Counted from the stretch's first letter, positions 29,941 through 38,897 are shown. The stretch: DNA of 64,000 bases from Tenacibaculum sp. (GCF_050290165.1 NZ_JBNKHD010000003.1:85752-149751); one strand, 5' to 3'. Notes: generated by a model not told the origin, from the letters alone. Made by a program: numbers and translations.

Positions 29941-31245
29941 ATGACCAAGAATTTAGTAGAAGAATTACGTTGGCGTGGAATGATTCACGATATCATGCCT
30001 GGAACTGAAGAGCAATTACAAAATGAAATGACAACTGCCTATATCGGTTTCGATCCAACATCTGATTCGTTACATATTGGTAGTTTGGTGCCAATTATTT
30101 TATTGGTACATATAGAAAAAGCAGGGCATCAACCTATTGCTTTAGTGGGAGGAGCTACAGGAATGATAGGTGATCCTTCAGGAAAATCTGATGAACGTAA
30201 TCTGTTGAATGAAGAAACATTGGCAAAAAACGTTGCTGGAATAAAAAGAACTCTTGGACGTTTTTTGAATTTTGATAATGGAAAAGAAAACTCTCCAATA
30301 TTGGTAAATAACTACGATTGGATGAAAGACTTTTCTTTCATTGAATTTGCACGTGATGTTGGTAAACGTATCACGGTAAATTATATGATGGCAAAAGATT
30401 CTGTAAAAAAACGTATCACAGGAGAAGCTGGTGGAGGAATGAGTTTTACCGAGTTCACATACCAATTAATACAAGGGTACGACTTCTATCATTTATACAA
30501 AGCATATAATTGTAAATTGCAAATGGGAGGTTCTGACCAATGGGGAAATATCACTACGGGTACAGAACTAGTCCGTAGAATGACTCCGGGTGAAGAAGCT
30601 AAGGCATTTGCGGCTACTTGTCCGTTAATTACGAAAGCTGATGGTTCAAAATTTGGAAAATCAGAAGGAGGAAATGTGTGGTTAGATGCCGATAAGACTT
30701 CAGTTTACAAGTTTTACCAATTTTGGTTAAATACGTCGGATGAAGATGCTGAAAAGTACATTAAAATATTTACGTTCTTAGACAAAGAAACTATTGAAAC
30801 TTTAATTGCTGAACACAGAGAAGCACCACATCAAAGAATTTTACAGAAAAAATTAGCTGAAGAAGTTACAACTTTTGTACATTCAAAAGAAGAGTTAGAT
30901 AAGGCAATAGCTGCATCAAATATTTTATTTGGTAAATCAACAGCAGATGATTTAAAGAGCTTAGATGAGCAAACTTTCTTAGATGTGTTTGACGGTGTTC
31001 CTCAAGCAGAAGTATCTTCTGAAGATATTAAAGAAGGTTTGGATATGATTGCTGCTTTAGCTGCAAAAACAAGCTTCCTAAAGTCGAACGGAGATGCCCG
31101 TAGAGCTTTAAAAGAAAGCTCTATATCTGTAAATAAAGAAAAGGTAGGCGAAGATTTTGTAATTACATCAAAAGATTTAATTGCAGGTAAGTACGTACTG
31201 TTACAAAGAGGTAAGAAGAACTATTTTCTATTAAAAGTACAATAG
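29941..31245 (+). CDS. tyrS: Tyrosine--tRNA ligase
   Basis: [12 protein letters not shown] (HIGH-like), [15 protein letters not shown] and C-terminal S4-like domain. Confidence 0.97.
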
Positions 31246-31268
31246 TTCTGTACTACATATATAAAAAC

Positions 31269-31300
31269 AAAACCTTAAAAGAAGATACTTTTAAGGTTTT
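31269..31300. terminator. Bidirectional intrinsic terminator
   Basis: AAAACCTTAAAAG-AAGATA-CTTTTAAGGTTTT between tyrS and the convergent small ORF. Confidence 0.8.
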
Positions 31301-31340
31301 TTTGTGTTTACATTTAATAATAAACGTGGGGAAAATATTT

Positions 31341-31538
31341 TTAGGAAACAGCTTTAAAATCAAACGTTAAAGGACATCGCTTACAGTTTATCCCTTTCTT
31401 CTGATATTTATTACAACATTTACTTTTTGGTTTGATACAGTTAGAAGTACATACCGAATTGCAAGCTGTTAAATTTTGCGCTTTTTGTATAGGAACCACA
31501 GAGGTAACCTTCTTAGTACTAGTATAAAAAACAATCAT
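31341..31538 (-). CDS. Small Cys-rich protein (7 Cys; CC-x9-C-x2-CP), candidate metal/[2Fe-2S]-binding
   Basis: 65 aa with C26, C30, C34, C41, C42, C52 and C55. It has its own consensus promoter upstream and a terminator downstream. Confidence 0.65.
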   Translation of the reverse strand: MIVFYTSTKKVTSVVPIQKAQNLTACNSVCTSNCIKPKSKCCNKYQKKGINCKRCPLTFDFKAVS

Positions 31539-31555
31539 TCTTCAAAAATTCGATG

Positions 31556-31563
31556 CAAATATA
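31556..31563 (-). promoter_or_regulatory. -7 promoter element (TATATTTG) for the small Cys-rich ORF
   Basis: CAAATATA on + strand, 17 nt upstream of ATG. Confidence 0.65.
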
Positions 31564-31568
31564 AATCT

Positions 31569-31593
31569 TTTATTTAGAATAAATTAAAATAAA
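31569..31593. promoter_or_regulatory. Putative Fur box
   Basis: TTTATTTAGAAT-A-AATTAAAATAAA. The core matches ATTTAGAATTATTCTAAAT (Fur box recalled from Riemerella work) at 15/19 and overlaps the expected -33 region. Confidence 0.55.
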
Positions 31594-31609
31594 AACATAA
31601 TTTTTTCGA

Positions 31610-31640
31610 TTGCGCAGCAAAAAGGATAGCAGTATCTTTG
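31610..31640 (+). promoter_or_regulatory. Promoter (-33 TTG, 20-nt spacer, -7 TATCTTTG) of the leader-TBDT operon
   Basis: TTG at 31610-31612 and TATCTTTG at 31633-31640. Confidence 0.65.
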
Positions 31641-31664
31641 TAATCATAAATAAAACCTCTCTTT

Positions 31665-32033
31665 TTGTTAAAGAAAGTAAGCATATTTTTTCTTGTTGGA
31701 TTGTACATGGTCGCCATGTTACGTCCCATAGCTCCTTTTGTTGAGTATGCAATAAACTATGATTATATATCAAAGGTTTTGTGTATCAATAAAGATAAGC
31801 CGGAGCTTGCCTGTAATGGAAAATGTCAGCTTATGAAAAAACTTGAAAAACAACAAGACGATGATTATAAATCGTTACGAATTTCAATGGAAGAATATCC
31901 AATAGGGTTTGTAACTATTTTAGATATTGAAACTCAAAAGCTTTTTTCATCGATATCGAAAAAGCATTTTAATTATAATAGAAACTATTTCTATTTATCT
32001 AGTGACAAGATATTCCACCCTCCTACAGTTTAA
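31665..32033 (+). CDS. Membrane-anchored Cys-motif leader protein (CINKDKPELACNGKC; C-terminal IFHPP), CruR/CutF(DUF2946)-like candidate uORF
   Basis: N-terminal hydrophobic segment, C40 plus C50xxxC54, and a di-proline motif 2 codons before the stop. It sits directly upstream of a metal TBDT. TTG start. Confidence 0.75.
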   Translation: MLKKVSIFFLVGLYMVAMLRPIAPFVEYAINYDYISKVLCINKDKPELACNGKCQLMKKLEKQQDDDYKSLRISMEEYPIGFVTILDIETQKLFSSISKKHFNYNRNYFYLSSDKIFHPPTV

Positions 32034-32034
32034 A

Positions 32035-32113
32035 TTTTACATACCACTTTTTTTTCAACGCAAACAATTCAAAATTTTTGAATTGATATGTGTTGCTATA
32101 TAATTATGTAAAA
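32035..32113 (+). other. Long intergenic RNA stem-loop between leader ORF and TBDT
   Basis: Outer pairing TTTTACATA(32035-43)/TATGTAAAA(32105-13); middle CAACGC/GTGTTG (32056-61/32090-95); inner CAATTCAAAA/TTTTGAATTG (32065-74/32076-85). Confidence 0.5.
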
Positions 32114-32131
32114 AAAATAAACTCAATTTTA

Positions 32132-34216
32132 ATGAAAAATTTAGGATGGATGCTTTTTAGCATCTTCACTATAAGTGTGTCTGCACAACAAAAAAAAGAC
32201 ACAGTTAAGCAACAAATCATACAGTTAAACGAAGTGATTGTTAATGGAAAAATAAAAACGAATCCTGTTCATGCTACAGTAAAAAATGACTATCAAAAAA
32301 AGGTAATTCAACCTAAAAATGTAGCGGACTTGTTTTCTGAAATCAATGGATTTTCAGTTATAAAAAGGGGAAACTATGCGATGGATCCAACATTTAGAGG
32401 CGCTGCTTACGAACAGCTAAATGTTATGTACGATGGGGGTACTAAAGCAGTGAATGCTTGTCCTAGTAGGATGGATCCAATTACCACCCATATCATACCC
32501 GAAGAAATTTCAAAAATTGAAATTATCAAAGGCCCTTTTACGGTAAGATATGGGGCGACTTTTGGGGGAATTGTAAATATGGTTACCGAAAACCATAGAT
32601 TGTTAGATGACGGATTTCATGGAAAATTTTCATCAGGTTATGAAACGAATGGGAATTCATTTGTAAATATGTTACAGTTACAACATGTTACCAACAAGTT
32701 TGATGTGGTAGGGAACGTTGGATATCGAAATTTTGGAGATTATAAAGATGGAAACAATACAGAAGTTCCTTCTTCATTTACCAGTACCGATTATGGTGTA
32801 AAGTTAGGGTATAATTTAACAGAGAGTCAGCGTTTACAAGCACACTGGCGTCAATCGTTTGGTAGAGACATAAAGCATGCTGCATTACCAATGGATACAG
32901 ATTATGATAACAGCACAATTGTATCGTTAGATTATAAGGCAATAAACATTGGTAACACTTTAAAAACAATTACTACTAAAGGATTTTATAGTTATGTAGA
33001 TCATTTAATGACGAATGAAGACCGCCCCAATTTTAATATGGTATATGCCTTGTCGCCAGTAAAATCTGAAACCACAGGAGGTAAAGTAGAGTTTGAATTA
33101 AATTTACATGATGATTTTAAGTTATTTGTAGGAAGTGATATCAATCATATAAAACGAGAAGGAAATCGTACTCGTACCATTAAAATGATGAATGGTACGA
33201 TGCTACCAATACCAATGGTTAAAGTAGATAAGATTTGGCAAGATGCTTATATAAATGATGTAGGGGTATTTACCGAAGCAAAATTTAATTTAGCTCCTAA
33301 AACCGTTTTAACTACTGGGGCTCGTGTTGATATTGTAAAAGCAAATGCAAAAGATTTAGAAGCTGATTTCGCAGCAATGTATCCAATAGTGAAAACTCAT
33401 GAAACTAATGTAAGTGGTAACATTTCATTAAAGCATGCATTTTCTAAGAAAGCAATTCTTGAAGCTGCTTTTGGTAGAGGAGTTCGAACAGCTAGTATGG
33501 CCGAACGTTATATCAATCATTTTACAATAGGGTCAGATTCTTATGAATATTTGGGGAATCCATTGTTAAAACCAGAGATAAATAATCAGTTTGAATTAGG
33601 CTTAAAAGGAAAAATTGGGTTGAGCAAAAGTTTACAATTACACTATCAAACATCCGTATTTTACTCAATCTTTGAAGATTATATTTCCGCGGTGGTAGAT
33701 CCAACAATTCCAAGAAAGTTTATGCCAACAATGCAACCTCAATATACAAAAGTGTTTACTAATATAGAAAATGCTACCAAAAAAGGGTTTGAAATTGTAG
33801 TAAAGTTAGAATTGTTAAATGATTACTATCTACAGACTGAGACAGCATATGTAAAAACAAAAAATAAAGATTTTAATGAATCACTACCATTAAATCCGCC
33901 TTTTACTTCAAAAATTTCTATAGGGGTAGATAAAGAAAGTTATTGGGCAAAAATGCAGTACAATATTGTATCAAAACAAGAAAATATAGCTCCTTCTTTT
34001 GGAGAAACCGAAACAGCAGGTTATCAAATTCTAGATGTAAAACTAGGAGTAAAACCTATTAAGAGAGTTACTATAGGAGTGGCTTGTTTAAATGTGTTTG
34101 ATAAAACGTACACAAACCACTTAAATTTTGCTTATAAAAACCAATCGGGTTTACCAATGTCAAAAATCAATGAATCTGGAAGGAATTTCACAGCCTTTTT
34201 ACAGTATAAATTTTAA
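32132..34216 (+). CDS. TonB-dependent receptor, OprC/NosA-like copper transporter
   Basis: Plug motif NACPSRMDP (CxxxM), barrel VDHLM (HxM), Met-rich loop KMMNGTMLPIPM and C-terminal Phe. ATG at 32132 is preferred over the ORF-track GTG at 32090. Confidence 0.8.
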   Translation: MKNLGWMLFSIFTISVSAQQKKDTVKQQIIQLNEVIVNGKIKTNPVHATVKNDYQKKVIQPKNVADLFSEINGFSVIKRGNYAMDPTFRGAAYEQLNVMYDGGTKAVNACPSRMDPITTHIIPEEISKIEIIKGPFTVRYGATFGGIVNMVTENHRLLDDGFHGKFSSGYETNGNSFVNMLQLQHVTNKFDVVGNVGYRNFGDYKDGNNTEVPSSFTSTDYGVKLGYNLTESQRLQAHWRQSFGRDIKHAALPMDTDYDNSTIVSLDYKAINIGNTLKTITTKGFYSYVDHLMTNEDRPNFNMVYALSPVKSETTGGKVEFELNLHDDFKLFVGSDINHIKREGNRTRTIKMMNGTMLPIPMVKVDKIWQDAYINDVGVFTEAKFNLAPKTVLTTGARVDIVKANAKDLEADFAAMYPIVKTHETNVSGNISLKHAFSKKAILEAAFGRGVRTASMAERYINHFTIGSDSYEYLGNPLLKPEINNQFELGLKGKIGLSKSLQLHYQTSVFYSIFEDYISAVVDPTIPRKFMPTMQPQYTKVFTNIENATKKGFEIVVKLELLNDYYLQTETAYVKTKNKDFNESLPLNPPFTSKISIGVDKESYWAKMQYNIVSKQENIAPSFGETETAGYQILDVKLGVKPIKRVTIGVACLNVFDKTYTNHLNFAYKNQSGLPMSKINESGRNFTAFLQYKF

Positions 34217-34279
34217 TTTTAATGTAAGGTTGCTTAATTTTGATGACCAATCAGAGAAATTAATCATTAAAATAATAGT

Positions 34280-34822
34280 ATGAAGAAATCAATTTTATCA
34301 GTTATAGTATTTGTTGTAGCACTTGTGTTTTCTAATGAAGTAGCGGCTCAAAAATTTGCAAGTTTAGATAAAAGTCCAATGGATGCCTCAACGTACCCTG
34401 CGATTTATAGAGTTTCTGATAAAAAGGTAAAAGTTATTTATGGACGCCCACAGTTAAAAAAAAGATCATTAGCAAAACTAGCTCCAACTGGAAAAGTATG
34501 GAGAACAGGAGCCAATGAAGCTACTGAAATTACATTCTATAAAGATGTTACTTTTGGAGGAAAAGACGTAAAAGCAGGAACCTATACGTTGTTTACCATT
34601 CCAGGAGAAAAAGAATGGACTGTTATTTTAAATACAGCAGTAAATGTATGGGGTGCCTTTTCTTACAACGAATCGGATGATGTTGTACGTGTAACAGGAA
34701 AAGTTTCCAAAGTAGCAAAACCTATAGAGGTTTTCTCTATTGCTTTTGAAGGAGAAGAGGATATTTTTAATATGTATTTAGGATGGGGTAATGTTGTAGT
34801 TACTGTACCTGTTAAAGGATAA
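34280..34822 (+). CDS. DUF2911 domain periplasmic protein
   Basis: Signal peptide, VIYGRPQLK, KVWRTGANEAT, AGTYTLFTIP and WGAFSY. Confidence 0.85.
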   Translation: MKKSILSVIVFVVALVFSNEVAAQKFASLDKSPMDASTYPAIYRVSDKKVKVIYGRPQLKKRSLAKLAPTGKVWRTGANEATEITFYKDVTFGGKDVKAGTYTLFTIPGEKEWTVILNTAVNVWGAFSYNESDDVVRVTGKVSKVAKPIEVFSIAFEGEEDIFNMYLGWGNVVVTVPVKG

Positions 34823-34844
34823 AAACTTTTATAAATATTTAATG

Positions 34845-34871
34845 AAAGCATAACCAATTTGGTTATGCTTT
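34845..34871. terminator. Bidirectional intrinsic terminator
   Basis: AAAGCATAACCA-ATT-TGGTTATGCTTT. Confidence 0.8.
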
Positions 34872-34888
34872 TTTATTTTAAAGTAATA

Positions 34889-35890
34889 TTATTCTACTAG
34901 TTTGTATTTTAACTCAATACTAGGTTCCATTTGATATGTAAATATTATTGAGCTAAAAAGAAAGGGGTGCTCAATTCCCATTTCTAAAGGTATTGTTAAA
35001 GATGATTCATTTTTTGTTAGCCAAATATCTTCATAAACATGCACTAGGGTGTCAAGTACTAGATAATTGTATTGCTCAATATTTAATGGTTTAATCACTA
35101 CTTCTTTATCAGAAAGTTGACTAGGTACTGAGTTTTTGGCTGTGTTAGAAAGGATAGCTTTTCTAACATCAACAATGGTGTCAATTTCTTTAGATGTATG
35201 TTCAGAGTTAGTAGTTGAATTGGCTGATAGACTCATCTTTACCAGCACATTTTCAGGAATTAAAGTAACTTCTTCTGATAGTTGAGGTAATAAATTGAAT
35301 ACAATGGGAACATAGCATTCTCTGTATAGTAAGGCATCTAATGTTTCACTAAAAAGAATATGATACTTTTCAGCTTCAGGGATTTTGAAAGTAACAGCAT
35401 CAGCAGTATAGTAGTTTGTTATGTAATTGGTAAGCTCCAGTTTTTGAATAAGGTTTTTGGCATACTCTAAAGATTTATCATTAATCTCTAGTAATGAAAA
35501 CTGAACTTCTTCAGGACTAAAAAGAGGCGCAATCAAAGTAACAAATGGAGCATAGGGTCCGCAACCAGCATAAAAAACATGAATAATTTCATTAGGGTGG
35601 CTTTGTAGCTTGTCTTTAATGGCGGTTACTATAGCCTTTAAAAACTTCACAGTTCTTTTATAATCCAGTAAACACTGTGCTGCATGATTCAATCCCAGTG
35701 CTTTTCCTTTTGCTGTTGTTACAGCAGCAAGATGCTCTATATCATTATCAAATCCAGTTAGCTGAGTGAGTTCTTGAAAATAAGAATGTATTTCATTAAT
35801 TAAGCTTTCTACTTCAGTTTGTTGAGTGGTGCTTTCGAGTAGCATTAATACTTTCTCTTTAAGATCTATAGCAGTTGCATTTTTGTTCAT
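34889..35890 (-). CDS. Class I SAM-dependent methyltransferase with PRMT-like motifs
   Basis: CLLDYKRT, motif I YAGCGP, post-I LLEIN, TAD and ILFSETLDALLYRE (E182/E191). Confidence 0.65.
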   Translation of the reverse strand: MNKNATAIDLKEKVLMLLESTTQQTEVESLINEIHSYFQELTQLTGFDNDIEHLAAVTTAKGKALGLNHAAQCLLDYKRTVKFLKAIVTAIKDKLQSHPNEIIHVFYAGCGPYAPFVTLIAPLFSPEEVQFSLLEINDKSLEYAKNLIQKLELTNYITNYYTADAVTFKIPEAEKYHILFSETLDALLYRECYVPIVFNLLPQLSEEVTLIPENVLVKMSLSANSTTNSEHTSKEIDTIVDVRKAILSNTAKNSVPSQLSDKEVVIKPLNIEQYNYLVLDTLVHVYEDIWLTKNESSLTIPLEMGIEHPFLFSSIIFTYQMEPSIELKYKLVE

Positions 35891-36044
35891 AGCTGATTAA
35901 TAGATGGTTTTTAGGTTAGTTTTCGATCTAAAAATAGAATAATCGTAGTTATTAATGAAGTGAAGACTTTCTTATTTTTAAAATTAGGGTGTTCTTGAAC
36001 AGGATAAAAATATATGGATGCTTTCTACTTCCAAACAATAACTG

Positions 36045-36052
36045 TAAATTTG
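36045..36052 (+). promoter_or_regulatory. -7 promoter element (TAAATTTG) for leuS
   Basis: Consensus, 25 nt upstream of ATG. Confidence 0.65.
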
Positions 36053-36077
36053 CGTCCTTTAAAACAAGAAGTTACAA

Positions 36078-38897
36078 ATGCAGTACAATCATCAAGAAAT
36101 AGAACGTAAGTGGCAAGAATTTTGGGCAAATAACCAAACATTTAAAGCCAGTAACAATTCTGATAAACCAAAATATTATGTGTTAGATATGTTTCCTTAT
36201 CCTTCAGGAGCTGGATTGCACGTTGGGCATCCATTAGGATATATCGCATCTGATATTTATGCACGTTACAAGCGTCATAAAGGGTTTAATGTATTGCATC
36301 CACAAGGATATGATTCTTTTGGATTACCTGCTGAACAATATGCGATTCAAACAGGACAGCATCCAGCAATTACGACCGAAACAAATATCAAAACATACCG
36401 TGGTCAGTTAGACAAAATCGGATTTTCATTTGATTGGTCTCGCGAAGTACGTACTTCAAATCCTGAGTACTACAAATGGACACAGTGGATTTTTATCCAA
36501 TTGTTCAACTCTTGGTATAATAAAGATACTGATAAAGCAGAAGATATTGCAACCTTAGTAGCTACCTTTGAAGCAGAAGGAAACGCGAATGTGAATGCGG
36601 TTTCTGATGAAGATGTACAGCAATTTTCTGCGGAAGAGTGGAAGAACTTCTCAGCAACAAAACAACTAGAAATATTATTACAATACCGTTTAACCTTTTT
36701 ATCGGATACCGAAGTAAACTGGTGTCCAGCTTTAGGAACGGTATTAGCAAACGATGAAATTGTAAACGGAGTTTCAGAACGTGGAGGACATCCAGTAATT
36801 CGTAAAAAAATGACCCAGTGGTCTATGCGAATTTCTGCCTACGCACAACGTTTATTAGACGGTTTAGAAACTATCGATTGGCCTCAACCGTTAAAAGATA
36901 GCCAAACCAACTGGATTGGTCGTTCACAAGGGGCGATGGTTTCTTTTGATGTGGATGGACACGATGCTAAAATAGATGTGTTTACTACACGTCCTGATAC
37001 TATTTTCGGAGTGTCTTTTATGACCTTAGCTCCAGAACACGATTTAGTGGCACAAATTACTACTGCTGAACAAAAAGAGGCAGTTGAAGCTTATATAGAT
37101 GCGACGTCAAAACGTTCTGAACGTGATCGTATGGCAGATGTAAAAACTATTTCAGGAGTGTTTACTGGTGCCTATGCATTACATCCATTTACAGGAAAAC
37201 AAGTACCCATTTGGATTGGTGATTATGTATTAGCAAGTTACGGTACAGGGGCTGTTATGGCGGTACCATGTGGTGACCAACGTGATTACGATTTTGCAAA
37301 ACACTTCGGATTAGAGATTCCAAACATTTTTGCAGATGTTGATATTTCTGAAAAAGCAAATGATGCTAAAGAAGGAATCAAATTAGCGAATTCTGATTTC
37401 TTAGATGGTTTAAACTATAACAAAGGAATGAAAACCGTGATTTACGAACTAGAAAAACGCGGTTTTGGTTACGGAAAAATAAACTATCGTTTACGCGATG
37501 CAGTATTCAGTCGTCAACGCTACTGGGGAGAACCATTCCCGGTATACTACAAAGACGAAATGCCGCAAATGATTGATGCAAAGCATTTACCAATTGTATT
37601 ACCTGAAGTTGAAAAATACTTACCTACTGAAGACGGAAAACCACCATTAGGAAACGCTGAGGTTTGGGCATGGGACACAACAACAAATACTGTTGTTGAA
37701 AATACTAAGATTGACAACGAAACTGTTTTCCCACTAGAGTTAAATTCAATGCCAGGGTGGGCAGGAAGTTCTTGGTACTTTAACCGCTATATGGATTCGA
37801 ATAACGAAGGAGAATTTGTAAGTAAGGAAGCGGTTGACTATTGGAAAGAAGTAGATTTATATATCGGAGGTTCTGAACATGCAACAGGACATTTATTATA
37901 TGAACGTTTTTGGCAAAAATTCTTATTTGATAGAGGTTTCTTACCTGTTGATGAATTTGCTAAAAAACTCATCAACCAAGGAATGATTTTAGGAACTTCT
38001 GCTTTTGTATATAGAGTTGAAGGAACAAATACGTTTGTTTCTAAAGGATTGATTGGAGATAAAATAGTGCAACCTATTCATGCTGATGTTTCGTTAGTAA
38101 ATTCTTCTGATGAATTAGATATTGAAGGATTCAAAAATCATCCGTTAAATATTGATTTTAAAGATGCAGAATTCATTTTAGAGGATGGTAAATACATTGT
38201 AGGTCGAGAAGTTGAAAAAATGTCGAAGTCGAAGTACAACGTAGTAAACCCAGATTTGATTTGTGAAGAGTATGGAGCCGATAGTTTACGTTTATTCGAA
38301 ATGTTCTTAGGTCCGTTAGAGCAAACCAAGCCTTGGAAAACTTCAGGGATTTCAGGAGTATATTCTTTCCTAAAGAAATTATGGAAATTATTTGCTGATG
38401 AAAATGGTATCAATGTTTCAGACACAGCACCAACTAAAGAGGAATTAAAAACCTTACATAAAACGATTAAGAAAGTAGAAGAAGATATTGAGAACTTCTC
38501 GTTCAACACGTCAGTTTCTACTTTTATGATTGCGGTGAATGAGTTATCGGCCTTAAAATGTAACAAACGTAGTATTTTAGAACCATTGTTAGTATTGATT
38601 TCTCCGTATGCTCCTCATATTGCAGAAGAATTATGGAGTCAGTTAGGACATGCCGAATCTATTTCAACTGTAGCTTTCCCAAAATTTGAAGAAAAGCATT
38701 TGGTTGAAAGTTCTAAGAACTATCCAGTTTCTTTCAATGGTAAAATGCGATTTACGTTAGAGTTACCGTTAGATATGAGCAAAGATGAAATTGAAAAAAC
38801 GGTAATGGCACACGAAAAAACACAACAACAATTACAAGGAAGAAAACCGAAAAAAGTGATTGTTGTTCCAGGTAAAATTATTAACATTGTCGGCTAA
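36078..38897 (+). CDS. leuS: Leucine--tRNA ligase
   Basis: MFPYPSGAGLHVGH, editing domain and KMSKS. Confidence 0.97.
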   Translation: MQYNHQEIERKWQEFWANNQTFKASNNSDKPKYYVLDMFPYPSGAGLHVGHPLGYIASDIYARYKRHKGFNVLHPQGYDSFGLPAEQYAIQTGQHPAITTETNIKTYRGQLDKIGFSFDWSREVRTSNPEYYKWTQWIFIQLFNSWYNKDTDKAEDIATLVATFEAEGNANVNAVSDEDVQQFSAEEWKNFSATKQLEILLQYRLTFLSDTEVNWCPALGTVLANDEIVNGVSERGGHPVIRKKMTQWSMRISAYAQRLLDGLETIDWPQPLKDSQTNWIGRSQGAMVSFDVDGHDAKIDVFTTRPDTIFGVSFMTLAPEHDLVAQITTAEQKEAVEAYIDATSKRSERDRMADVKTISGVFTGAYALHPFTGKQVPIWIGDYVLASYGTGAVMAVPCGDQRDYDFAKHFGLEIPNIFADVDISEKANDAKEGIKLANSDFLDGLNYNKGMKTVIYELEKRGFGYGKINYRLRDAVFSRQRYWGEPFPVYYKDEMPQMIDAKHLPIVLPEVEKYLPTEDGKPPLGNAEVWAWDTTTNTVVENTKIDNETVFPLELNSMPGWAGSSWYFNRYMDSNNEGEFVSKEAVDYWKEVDLYIGGSEHATGHLLYERFWQKFLFDRGFLPVDEFAKKLINQGMILGTSAFVYRVEGTNTFVSKGLIGDKIVQPIHADVSLVNSSDELDIEGFKNHPLNIDFKDAEFILEDGKYIVGREVEKMSKSKYNVVNPDLICEEYGADSLRLFEMFLGPLEQTKPWKTSGISGVYSFLKKLWKLFADENGINVSDTAPTKEELKTLHKTIKKVEEDIENFSFNTSVSTFMIAVNELSALKCNKRSILEPLLVLISPYAPHIAEELWSQLGHAESISTVAFPKFEEKHLVESSKNYPVSFNGKMRFTLELPLDMSKDEIEKTVMAHEKTQQQLQGRKPKKVIVVPGKIINIVG

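Follow-up and report, generated by a model that had tools for sequence, protein, structure and literature searches.

Control of copper genes through a nascent peptide has been characterized for two proteobacterial proteins only, CruR and CutF, both of which belong to the DUF2946 family (PF11162) (PMC9426467, PMC9973294). For CruR, arrest of the ribosome has been shown in vitro (PMC12992588). A wider set of "CutF-like" proteins was defined as those of <150 aa with Pro-Pro in the last 15 residues, an N-terminal signal peptide, a same-strand gene ≤1,000 nt downstream, and a Cys/His metal motif; it comprises 5,334 proteins in 29 clusters, of which 19% (40% when normalized) come from Bacteroidota, and TonB-like proteins are among the commonest neighbors (PMC9973294). 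Upstream open reading frames (ORFs) of copper-related genes that end in RAPP/RGPP were reported to be lacking in Bacteroidota (PMC12992588), and our search of the literature found no paper on the regulation of copper uptake in this phylum. Here we describe a 122-aa ORF in a 64,000-nt stretch of Tenacibaculum sp. DNA (NZ_JBNKHD010000003.1:85752-149751, referred to below as the window), which precedes the genes for a TonB-dependent transporter (TBDT) and a DUF2911 protein. Judged by its sequence and that of its relatives, this ORF is probably a cis-acting, copper-sensing leader on which the ribosome stalls, and not a structural part of the transporter.

A reading of the window made from the sequence only (the sequence-only reading) had described one promoter, a 122-aa ORF with a hydrophobic N terminus, the cysteines C40 and C50-NGK-C54 and a terminal IFHPP-TV-stop, a TBDT with CxxxM and HxM motifs, and finally DUF2911. 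Every one of these elements is present. The leader starts with (M)LKKVSIFFLVGLYMVAMLRP, in which two lysines are followed by ~15 hydrophobic residues, and residues 1–25 have Kyte-Doolittle means of 1.4–1.9. It ends with IFHPPTV-stop, which places Pro-Pro at positions -4/-3. A single promoter fits the sequence, as a Bacteroidetes-type -7 box is found before the leader and none in the 98-nt intergenic region between the leader and the TBDT gene. In a scan of the window, the only hairpin-plus-T-run terminators near the unit are at 31269–31300 and 34844–34872, flanking the three genes. The TBDT has a Plug and a barrel domain. Among NCBIfam models it matches the OprC/NosA model TIGR01778 (TonB-copper) best, with a score of 263 bits that is under the equivalog cut-off of 472 bits; copper is its predicted substrate. 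The best solved relative is OprC from Pseudomonas aeruginosa (6FOK; E 9e-37), which it resembles over a full-length alignment and in the CxxxM and HxM copper ligands; CPSRM of the window TBDT aligns in register with CPNRM of OprC, and DHLM aligns with DHIM. The last protein matches DUF2911 (PF11138) with an E value of 7e-48 and 162.5 bits, compared with a gathering score of 27.

The leader itself has no match in Pfam or NCBIfam, and PF11162 is absent at E ≤ 1. When 104 diverse members of its family were searched against Pfam, only noise was obtained. A word-seeded search identified 507 close relatives, mostly from Tenacibaculum and Polaribacter and all annotated as "hypothetical protein." A profile search of 1.84 billion cluster representatives (50%-identity clusters) gave 5,605 representatives at E ≤ 1e-3 and 1,355 at E ≤ 1e-10. 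Among 301 Bacteroidota genomes drawn evenly across the phylum, 108 carry at least one copy, representing 58 of 143 genera, and 23 genomes have two or three.

An alignment of the 104 diverse sequences has a mean column identity of 32%, and the invariant columns are solely P24, C40, C50, G52, C54, P119, and P120. The sequence-only reading had proposed conservation of CxxxC and of the terminal Pro-Pro in homologs as a check, and both are borne out by this alignment. Apart from the seed, Pro-Pro is found ≤16 residues from the C terminus in 138 of the 149 best cluster representatives; the other 11 are shorter than full-length members and are apparently truncated. The family motif is [FL][HRKQ]PP, which occurs as FHPP (70), FRPP (16), LRPP (5), and others (n = 138), and the tail behind it has 1–10 residues, mostly 2–4. 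The distance from the last cysteine to the first proline is 62–71 residues, mostly 64–70. At the motif, 111 distinct loci use between them all four codons for Pro and both codons for each of His and Phe, which indicates that it is the peptide, rather than the RNA sequence, that is under selection.

The AlphaFold2 (AF2) model of the leader has a mean predicted local distance difference test score (pLDDT) of 78 and contains helices at residues 2–18, 20–30, 32–38, and 53–70, with coil for residues 71–122. The first helix has a pLDDT of 95. The hydrophobic N terminus is kept across the family, and distant members have classical signal peptides of the ...LQA/FSK type. The Cys cluster, which lies in the conserved part, is a putative Cu(I) site. 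Residues 83–116 are hypervariable yet length-constrained; with the predicted coil, this makes the C-terminal part appear spacer-like. A Foldseek search of the PDB with the AF2 model returned no structural relative.

The genomic context was compared at 116 loci (80 from genome contigs and 36 from the phylum sample) and in the window. The leader is the first gene of a copper-linked operon in 116 of 116 loci. A same-strand gene always lies behind it, at 26–390 nt with two outliers, and adjacency to metal genes, another of the proposed checks, was seen at every locus examined. The downstream genes were classed by clustering and Pfam annotation. The first of them encodes MbnP in 34 loci, where it is followed by the di-heme protein MbnH and an outer-membrane barrel; an outer-membrane barrel with a weak Phenol_MetA_deg match in 32, usually followed by a TBDT and PepSY_TM; a TBDT in 29; a YtkA-like protein, followed by a TBDT, in 17; and a YHS protein, followed by SCO1 and Fe/Mn superoxide dismutase, in 2. 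Two further loci have a COX1 gene downstream of the leader. DUF2911 is often the last gene of the unit and is at the operon end in 37 related loci. Efflux or detoxification genes are absent from the annotated downstream classes of the 116 loci. A ~331-aa protein encoded after MbnH (L001:8390-9385, L008:6458-7504) has no Pfam match; it forms a BLAST cluster with the ~348-aa outer-membrane barrel that has the weak Phenol_MetA_deg match. This group has 62 members in the loci studied and may be a copper-associated outer-membrane channel family.

In Tenacibaculum the locus is syntenic (L001–L066 compared with window positions 31245–36078), with the order tyrS, a Cys-rich ORF, and the leader, and then DUF2911 and often leuS. 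The genes between the leader and DUF2911 vary and comprise a TBDT alone (~12 loci), MbnP-MbnH-barrel with or without a TBDT, or barrel-TBDT-PepSY_TM. The cargo thus seems to have been exchanged behind a fixed leader. At three loci (L125, L130, and L146) two leaders are present in one cluster, each of them heading its own sub-operon, which argues for action in cis. The gene order of L125 (G027:C2:226170-237000), to which L130 is similar, is leader, YHS protein, SCO1/SenC, Fe/Mn superoxide dismutase, second leader, MbnP, and MbnH. The Fe/Mn superoxide dismutase, placed after what may be a copper-limitation switch, suggests a response that spares copper.

The leader starts with TTG in 60 of 66 Tenacibaculum and Polaribacter loci and with GTG in 3 of them. 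About half of 50 more distant loci also have a non-ATG start, though any nearby ATG was preferred. Non-ATG codons are a small minority among bacterial starts, and a weak start codon that is conserved is consistent with a low-abundance product. A TAnnTTTG box is present ≤160 nt 5' of the leader in 90 of the 116 loci, with a peak at -40 to -20, and in 1 of the 116 intergenic regions between the leader and the next gene. A possible internal promoter before the window TBDT gene (TAATTATG, ~32102) has one mismatch to the box and was rejected in view of that family count. A scan for sigma-70 promoters gave 15 sites, where 19 were expected; it is uninformative for this phylum, and the Bacteroidetes box was used instead. 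Short GATA/TATC inverted repeats (e.g. GGATAGCAGTATC) overlap the -7 box of the leader in many Tenacibaculum loci (window 31604–31640 and the same region of L002–L021). They may be an operator for extra transcriptional control, with arms too short to judge alone.

The RNA between the end of the leader and the start of the TBDT gene is predicted to be structured. In the window, the segment 32013–32140 has a minimum free energy (MFE) of -21.1 kcal/mol (z -4.6), which 0 of 200 dinucleotide shuffles equaled, and it folds into one long interrupted stem. The base helices of the MFE fold are formed by 32027–32032 with 32118–32123 and by 32035–32043 with 32105–32113, and they enclose the central hairpin of 7 + 9 bp. 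Ten Tenacibaculum loci share this gene order; among them, compensatory changes are found in the inner stems (L015, L016, L021, L028, and L046, the last with a G-U pair), and the base helix is mostly invariant. Hairpins of unlike sequence occupy this position in the majority of short intergenic regions. Two other roles of this hairpin were considered. As an intrinsic terminator it was rejected, because a T-run is absent, unlike in the real terminators of the genome. A DNA operator made of the inverted repeat was judged less likely than an RNA hairpin, as L046 keeps the stem through its G-U pair.

The complementarity between stop and start extends over the family. Pairing of the leader 3' end with its own downstream start region was compared with pairing to non-cognate ones over 77 non-redundant loci; the mean duplex energies are -10.8 and -7.5 kcal/mol, respectively (mean row rank 0.21; permutation p < 0.0005). 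In an alignment-free scan, windows of 20 nt between -90 nt and the start region were compared as partners of the latter. In 32 of 74 non-redundant loci, the best of these windows begins 1–12 nt ahead of the stop codon, and the other 12-nt bins contain ≤5 each. As a control, other same-strand junctions from the same DNA and of equal G+C had 8 of 107 in the stop-codon bin and a flat distribution of positions (Fisher p 1.5e-8). The median duplex energy is -9.15 kcal/mol, compared with -7.3 kcal/mol for the controls (Mann-Whitney p 5e-4). Duplexes of -8 kcal/mol or better are found in 47 loci. Here the pairing strand extends over -8 to +12 around the stop, and its partner over -26 to -4 relative to the ATG. 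Counted from the initial nucleotide of the first Pro codon, the pairing strand starts a median of 7 nt downstream, and a ribosome with Pro-Pro in the P and A sites would therefore sit on its 5' part. The pairing sequences are unrelated between genera; L153 has a 13-bp perfect duplex, and that of L141 reaches -22.5 kcal/mol. The features of the unit in the window are listed in Table I.

Table I. Features of the leader, TBDT, and DUF2911 unit, with positions counted from the first nucleotide of the window
Feature	Position	Strand	Description
Bacteroidetes-type -7 box TATCTTTG (TAnnTTTG)	31633–31640	+	~25 nt 5' of leader start
Leader ORF	31665–32033	+	122 aa, TTG start; C-x9-C-x3-C ... [FL][HRKQ]PP family
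Leader hydrophobic N-terminal segment, residues 5–19 after K3K4	31677–31721	+	Putative Sec signal peptide or signal anchor
Leader Cys cluster C40 ... C50-N-G-K-C54	31782–31826	+	Putative Cu(I) site, metal binding inferred
Leader F117-H118-P119-P120 codons	32013–32024	+	Candidate ribosome arrest site; Pro codons 32019–32024
Anti-TIR strand AGTTTAAATTTTACATA: last codon, stop, and next 10 nt	32027–32043	+	Complementary to translation-initiation region (TIR) of next gene
Central two-part intergenic hairpin, 7 + 9 bp	32056–32095	+	T-run absent behind hairpin
A-rich start-region strand TATGTAAAAAAAATAAACT	32105–32123	+	-27 to -9 from TBDT ATG; pairs with anti-TIR strand
OprC-like TBDT, 694 aa	32132–34216	+	CPSRM 32459–32473, DHLM 32999–33010
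DUF2911 protein, N terminus signal peptide-like	34280–34822	+	PF11138; final gene of unit
Canonical intrinsic terminator, 13-bp stem and T-run	34844 to about 34872–34882	+	Closes operon

Two further ORFs adjoin the unit on the opposite strand. The Cys-rich ORF upstream (31341–31538, - strand) diverges from the leader promoter and codes for 65 aa with eight cysteines (...CNSVCTSNC...CCNKYQKKGINCKRCP...). It has no match in Pfam or NCBIfam. It is kept at 52–85% identity in ~55 Tenacibaculum and Polaribacter loci, mostly directly upstream of the leader and regardless of the cargo, and might be a metal-related partner or regulator. The ORF at 34889–35890 (- strand, 333 aa) is convergent with DUF2911 and gave sub-threshold matches only (Methyltransf_31, E 0.14; RsmG, E 0.023).

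The conserved motifs and their spacing, the position of the leader behind a promoter, the copper-linked cargo, and the stop-to-start complementarity can be combined in one mechanism, for which we infer a stall, copper as the ligand, sensing in the periplasm rather than the cytoplasm, and the sign of regulation. One promoter would transcribe the leader, the TBDT gene, and the DUF2911 gene. The leader would be sparsely translated from its TTG codon, and the N-terminal signal would target the chain to the Sec translocon. With the ribosome at F-H-P-P, two codons before the stop, the Cys cluster would be ~65 residues behind the peptidyl-transferase center, a distance at which it should be out of the ribosomal tunnel and entering or leaving SecYEG. 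A ribosome that pauses on Pro-Pro would cover the mRNA from just past the Pro codons across the stop, a segment that could otherwise pair with the A-rich region 10–27 nt upstream of the TBDT start codon. Because the anti-TIR strand would be covered during the pause, the start region would be freed and the transporter made.

Copper bound to the Cys cluster would alter the length of the pause. At low copper the stall would persist and the operon would be ON. When copper is present, the exported domain would fold round Cu(I) and pull the chain, upon which the stall would be released, the helix would re-form, and the operon would be OFF. All annotated cargo acquires or delivers copper, and no efflux or detoxification gene is among it, which points to a sign like that of CruR (PMC9426467). 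From this analysis, it is most likely that the operon is ON at low copper and that copper releases the stall, rather than inducing it as for CutF. The interpretation as a stalling leader, put forward in the sequence-only reading, is supported by the comparison across loci and can be regarded as a strong hypothesis.

A broader proposal can be made only tentatively, and we hold it with less than even confidence. Arrest peptides that sense metals may have evolved independently a second time, and the family may be this second class and the main copper-limitation switch of Bacteroidota. It would combine a new [FL][HRKQ]PP stall motif after an aromatic-rich stretch, periplasmic Cu(I) sensing by three cysteines on a nascent chain exported during translation, and a stop-to-start clamp, in a portable cassette for each TBDT, MbnP/MbnH, YtkA-like, or SCO1 module.

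Part of the data would also be accounted for by a stable envelope protein, that is, a signal-anchored or periplasmic Cu(I)-binding accessory protein or chaperone that acts in trans, with the helix as ordinary translational coupling and Pro-Pro serving structure or interactions. In favor of this, conservation of the N-terminal domain is high and its helices are modeled with confidence, the three invariant cysteines form a plausible Cu(I) site, and the gene always adjoins those of envelope copper proteins; translational coupling through RNA structure is, moreover, common. However, the partners differ wholly (TBDT, MbnP, YtkA-like, barrel, and SCO1) and none is constant, clusters with two leaders have one for each sub-operon, and the weak TTG start has been conserved. 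Apart from Pro-Pro, the last 50 residues are hypervariable and yet constrained in length, and the position of Pro-Pro near the stop, directly 5' of the pairing strand, would be left unexplained. As no structural relative was found by Foldseek either, we consider a stable protein of this kind rather unlikely. Another reading keeps the copper-sensing stall but gives it a transcriptional output. The parked ribosome would then keep Rho from loading, or prevent termination at the intergenic hairpin, which is how CruR acts before a TBDT gene (PMC9426467). A conserved hairpin does lie 12–24 nt past the stop in most short intergenic regions, and that of the window contains 12 C compared with 7 G. Over all loci, though, no C-richness is seen between the leader and the next gene (C 0.146, G 0.131), so that a C-rich Rho site is not evident; the hairpin lacks the T-run of the real terminators, and a position-specific complementarity between stop and start would be superfluous. 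Transcriptional output in place of translational output is therefore unlikely, although both could coexist.

The signal could also be one other than copper, such as Sec export activity, the periplasmic thiol-redox state or disulfide formation on the three cysteines, or zinc or iron. This is distinctly improbable in view of the cargo, which is specifically copper-linked (OprC-type ligands, MbnP/MbnH, SCO1, YtkA-like, YHS, and COX1) and in which, over the 116 loci, no sec, yidC, or dsb gene was seen, and in view of the three-Cys site, which suits Cu(I). There is nevertheless precedent for such signals. Sec-monitoring arrest peptides with a C-terminal Pro-Pro are widespread (PMC10987492, PMC12992588), disulfide formation between cysteines is part of the switch in the CutF model (bioRxiv 10.1101/2025.02.05.636593), and some CutF-like clusters are thought to be Ni or Co sensors (PMC9973294). 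The PepSY_TM and TBDT genes are found in iron systems too.

Several points weigh against a copper-sensing stall at the leader. Copper was assigned as the ligand from the neighboring genes only. The N-terminal 70 residues are strongly conserved and their helices are modeled confidently (pLDDT 87–95 for residues 1–40), which fits a stable folded protein too. [FL][HRKQ]PP is not among the known arrest motifs; Arg and Ala are critical in RAPP, and these positions differ here. Plain Pro-Pro is normally resolved by elongation factor P (EF-P). The stop-to-start helix is A/U-rich and modest in energy, with the best partner at the stop in only 43% of loci, and the p values overstate independence because the loci are phylogenetically related. 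Finally, the central hairpin plays no part in the proposed mechanism.

The leader family occurs in about one third of the sampled Bacteroidota genomes and in thousands of clusters, and yet it has no Pfam model. In the literature, we found no paper describing the family, its motif, or its RNA arrangement. Initiation in Bacteroidota is not based on a Shine-Dalgarno sequence. If the stall is true, the leader would offer a test case for the control of initiation by stalling without such a sequence, as well as a new arrest motif, a case of convergent evolution of the signal, Cys site, spacer, and Pro-Pro design, and a compact copper-responsive switch for Bacteroidota genetics. The leader also flags the genes downstream of it as candidate copper-acquisition genes, including those for DUF2911, the outer-membrane barrel, and the YtkA-like proteins.

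The sequence-only reading had called the leader an analog of CruR and CutF, which proves to be the right word. PF11162 has no match in the genome of the window at E ≤ 0.01, and none of the 104 family members matches it even at E ≤ 10. In the 301 Bacteroidota genomes, PF11162 passes its cut-off in 4, and there are 22 weak matches. The DUF2946-like proteins of Bacteroidota are separate proteins at separate loci; they have a transmembrane segment, are His-rich, and contain CxxC and R[AG]PP 2–5 residues before the stop. True DUF2946-like R[AG]PP proteins thus exist in this phylum, if rarely, which corrects the sequence-only reading. They are found at L112, L114, L115, L117, L119, L120, and L121, and the Flavobacteriaceae genome of L120 also carries the FHPP family. 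A comparison of profile hidden Markov models with hhalign, proposed as a further check, gave a probability of 1% between the family and six Bacteroidota DUF2946-like proteins; as the alignment of six proteins is shallow, this negative result is weaker than one against the full Pfam seed. DUF2946 sequences were also sought on Cupriavidus pMOL30, and none were found. With no profile similarity to DUF2946, the leader is an analog of CruR and CutF and not a member of their family, and its family appears to have their design without detectable shared ancestry with DUF2946.

The individual features of DUF2946 leaders support this distinction. In place of CxxC, the family has C40-x9-C50-x3-C54. The C-terminal motif is placed like RAPP/RGPP with respect to the stop but lacks R-A/G at -2/-1. 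The spacing between Cys and Pro-Pro is 62–71 rather than ~45 ± 2, constrained but looser. The N-terminal export signal (by hydrophobicity) and the place at the head of copper operons (116/116 loci) are shared. By contrast, the leader falls within the "CutF-like" definition, with 122 aa, Pro-Pro at -4/-3, a hydrophobic N terminus, a 98-nt intergenic region, and CxxxC, and its family may be among the 29 clusters (PMC9973294). The statement that no example had been characterized in this phylum consequently holds for experimental characterization, but many Bacteroidota "CutF-like" proteins had been counted computationally by Ozturk et al. 2023 (PMC9973294).

Among the known systems, CruR of Bordetella pertussis (Bp2923, PF11162), which is encoded before the TBDT gene bfrG (PMC9426467), resembles the leader as a small first gene of a TBDT operon, which is copper-repressed for CruR and probably also for the leader. 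An N-terminal export signal and a Cys copper motif, both putative in the leader, are shared, as are a Pro-Pro that precedes the stop by ~3 residues with constrained spacing to the cysteines, and a TBDT and a PepSY protein as cargo. They differ in CxxC compared with C-x9-C-x3-C, RAPP compared with [FL][HRKQ]PP, and a spacing of ~45 compared with 64–70, and there is no sequence or profile similarity. Whereas CruR has a GC-rich Rho site, the leader family has an A/T-rich intergenic region of 75–200 nt with a stop-to-start helix. The arrest peptides that report on secretion, SecM before secA and the RAPP/RGPP peptides that monitor Sec/YidC (PMC10987492, PMC12992588), have, as is proposed for the leader, an exported chain, a C-terminal arrest beside the stop, and a stall that remodels the mRNA structure downstream and so exposes the next start. 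They have another motif, no homology to the leader, and secretion genes as cargo instead of metal-related ones. CutF of Rhodobacter capsulatus (PMC9973294, bioRxiv 10.1101/2025.02.05.636593) shares with the leader a CxxxC with an upstream Cys and, putative in the leader, a Sec signal peptide and a C-terminal proline stall motif; a ribosome stalled on CutF opens an RNA stem in which the next start is masked, as we propose for the leader. According to its published description, CutF is set apart by a PPP motif and by a stem-loop that shields a Shine-Dalgarno sequence. CutF turns ON a detoxifying oxidase at high copper, whereas the cargo of the leader serves uptake and delivery, and the opposite sign of regulation is therefore expected.

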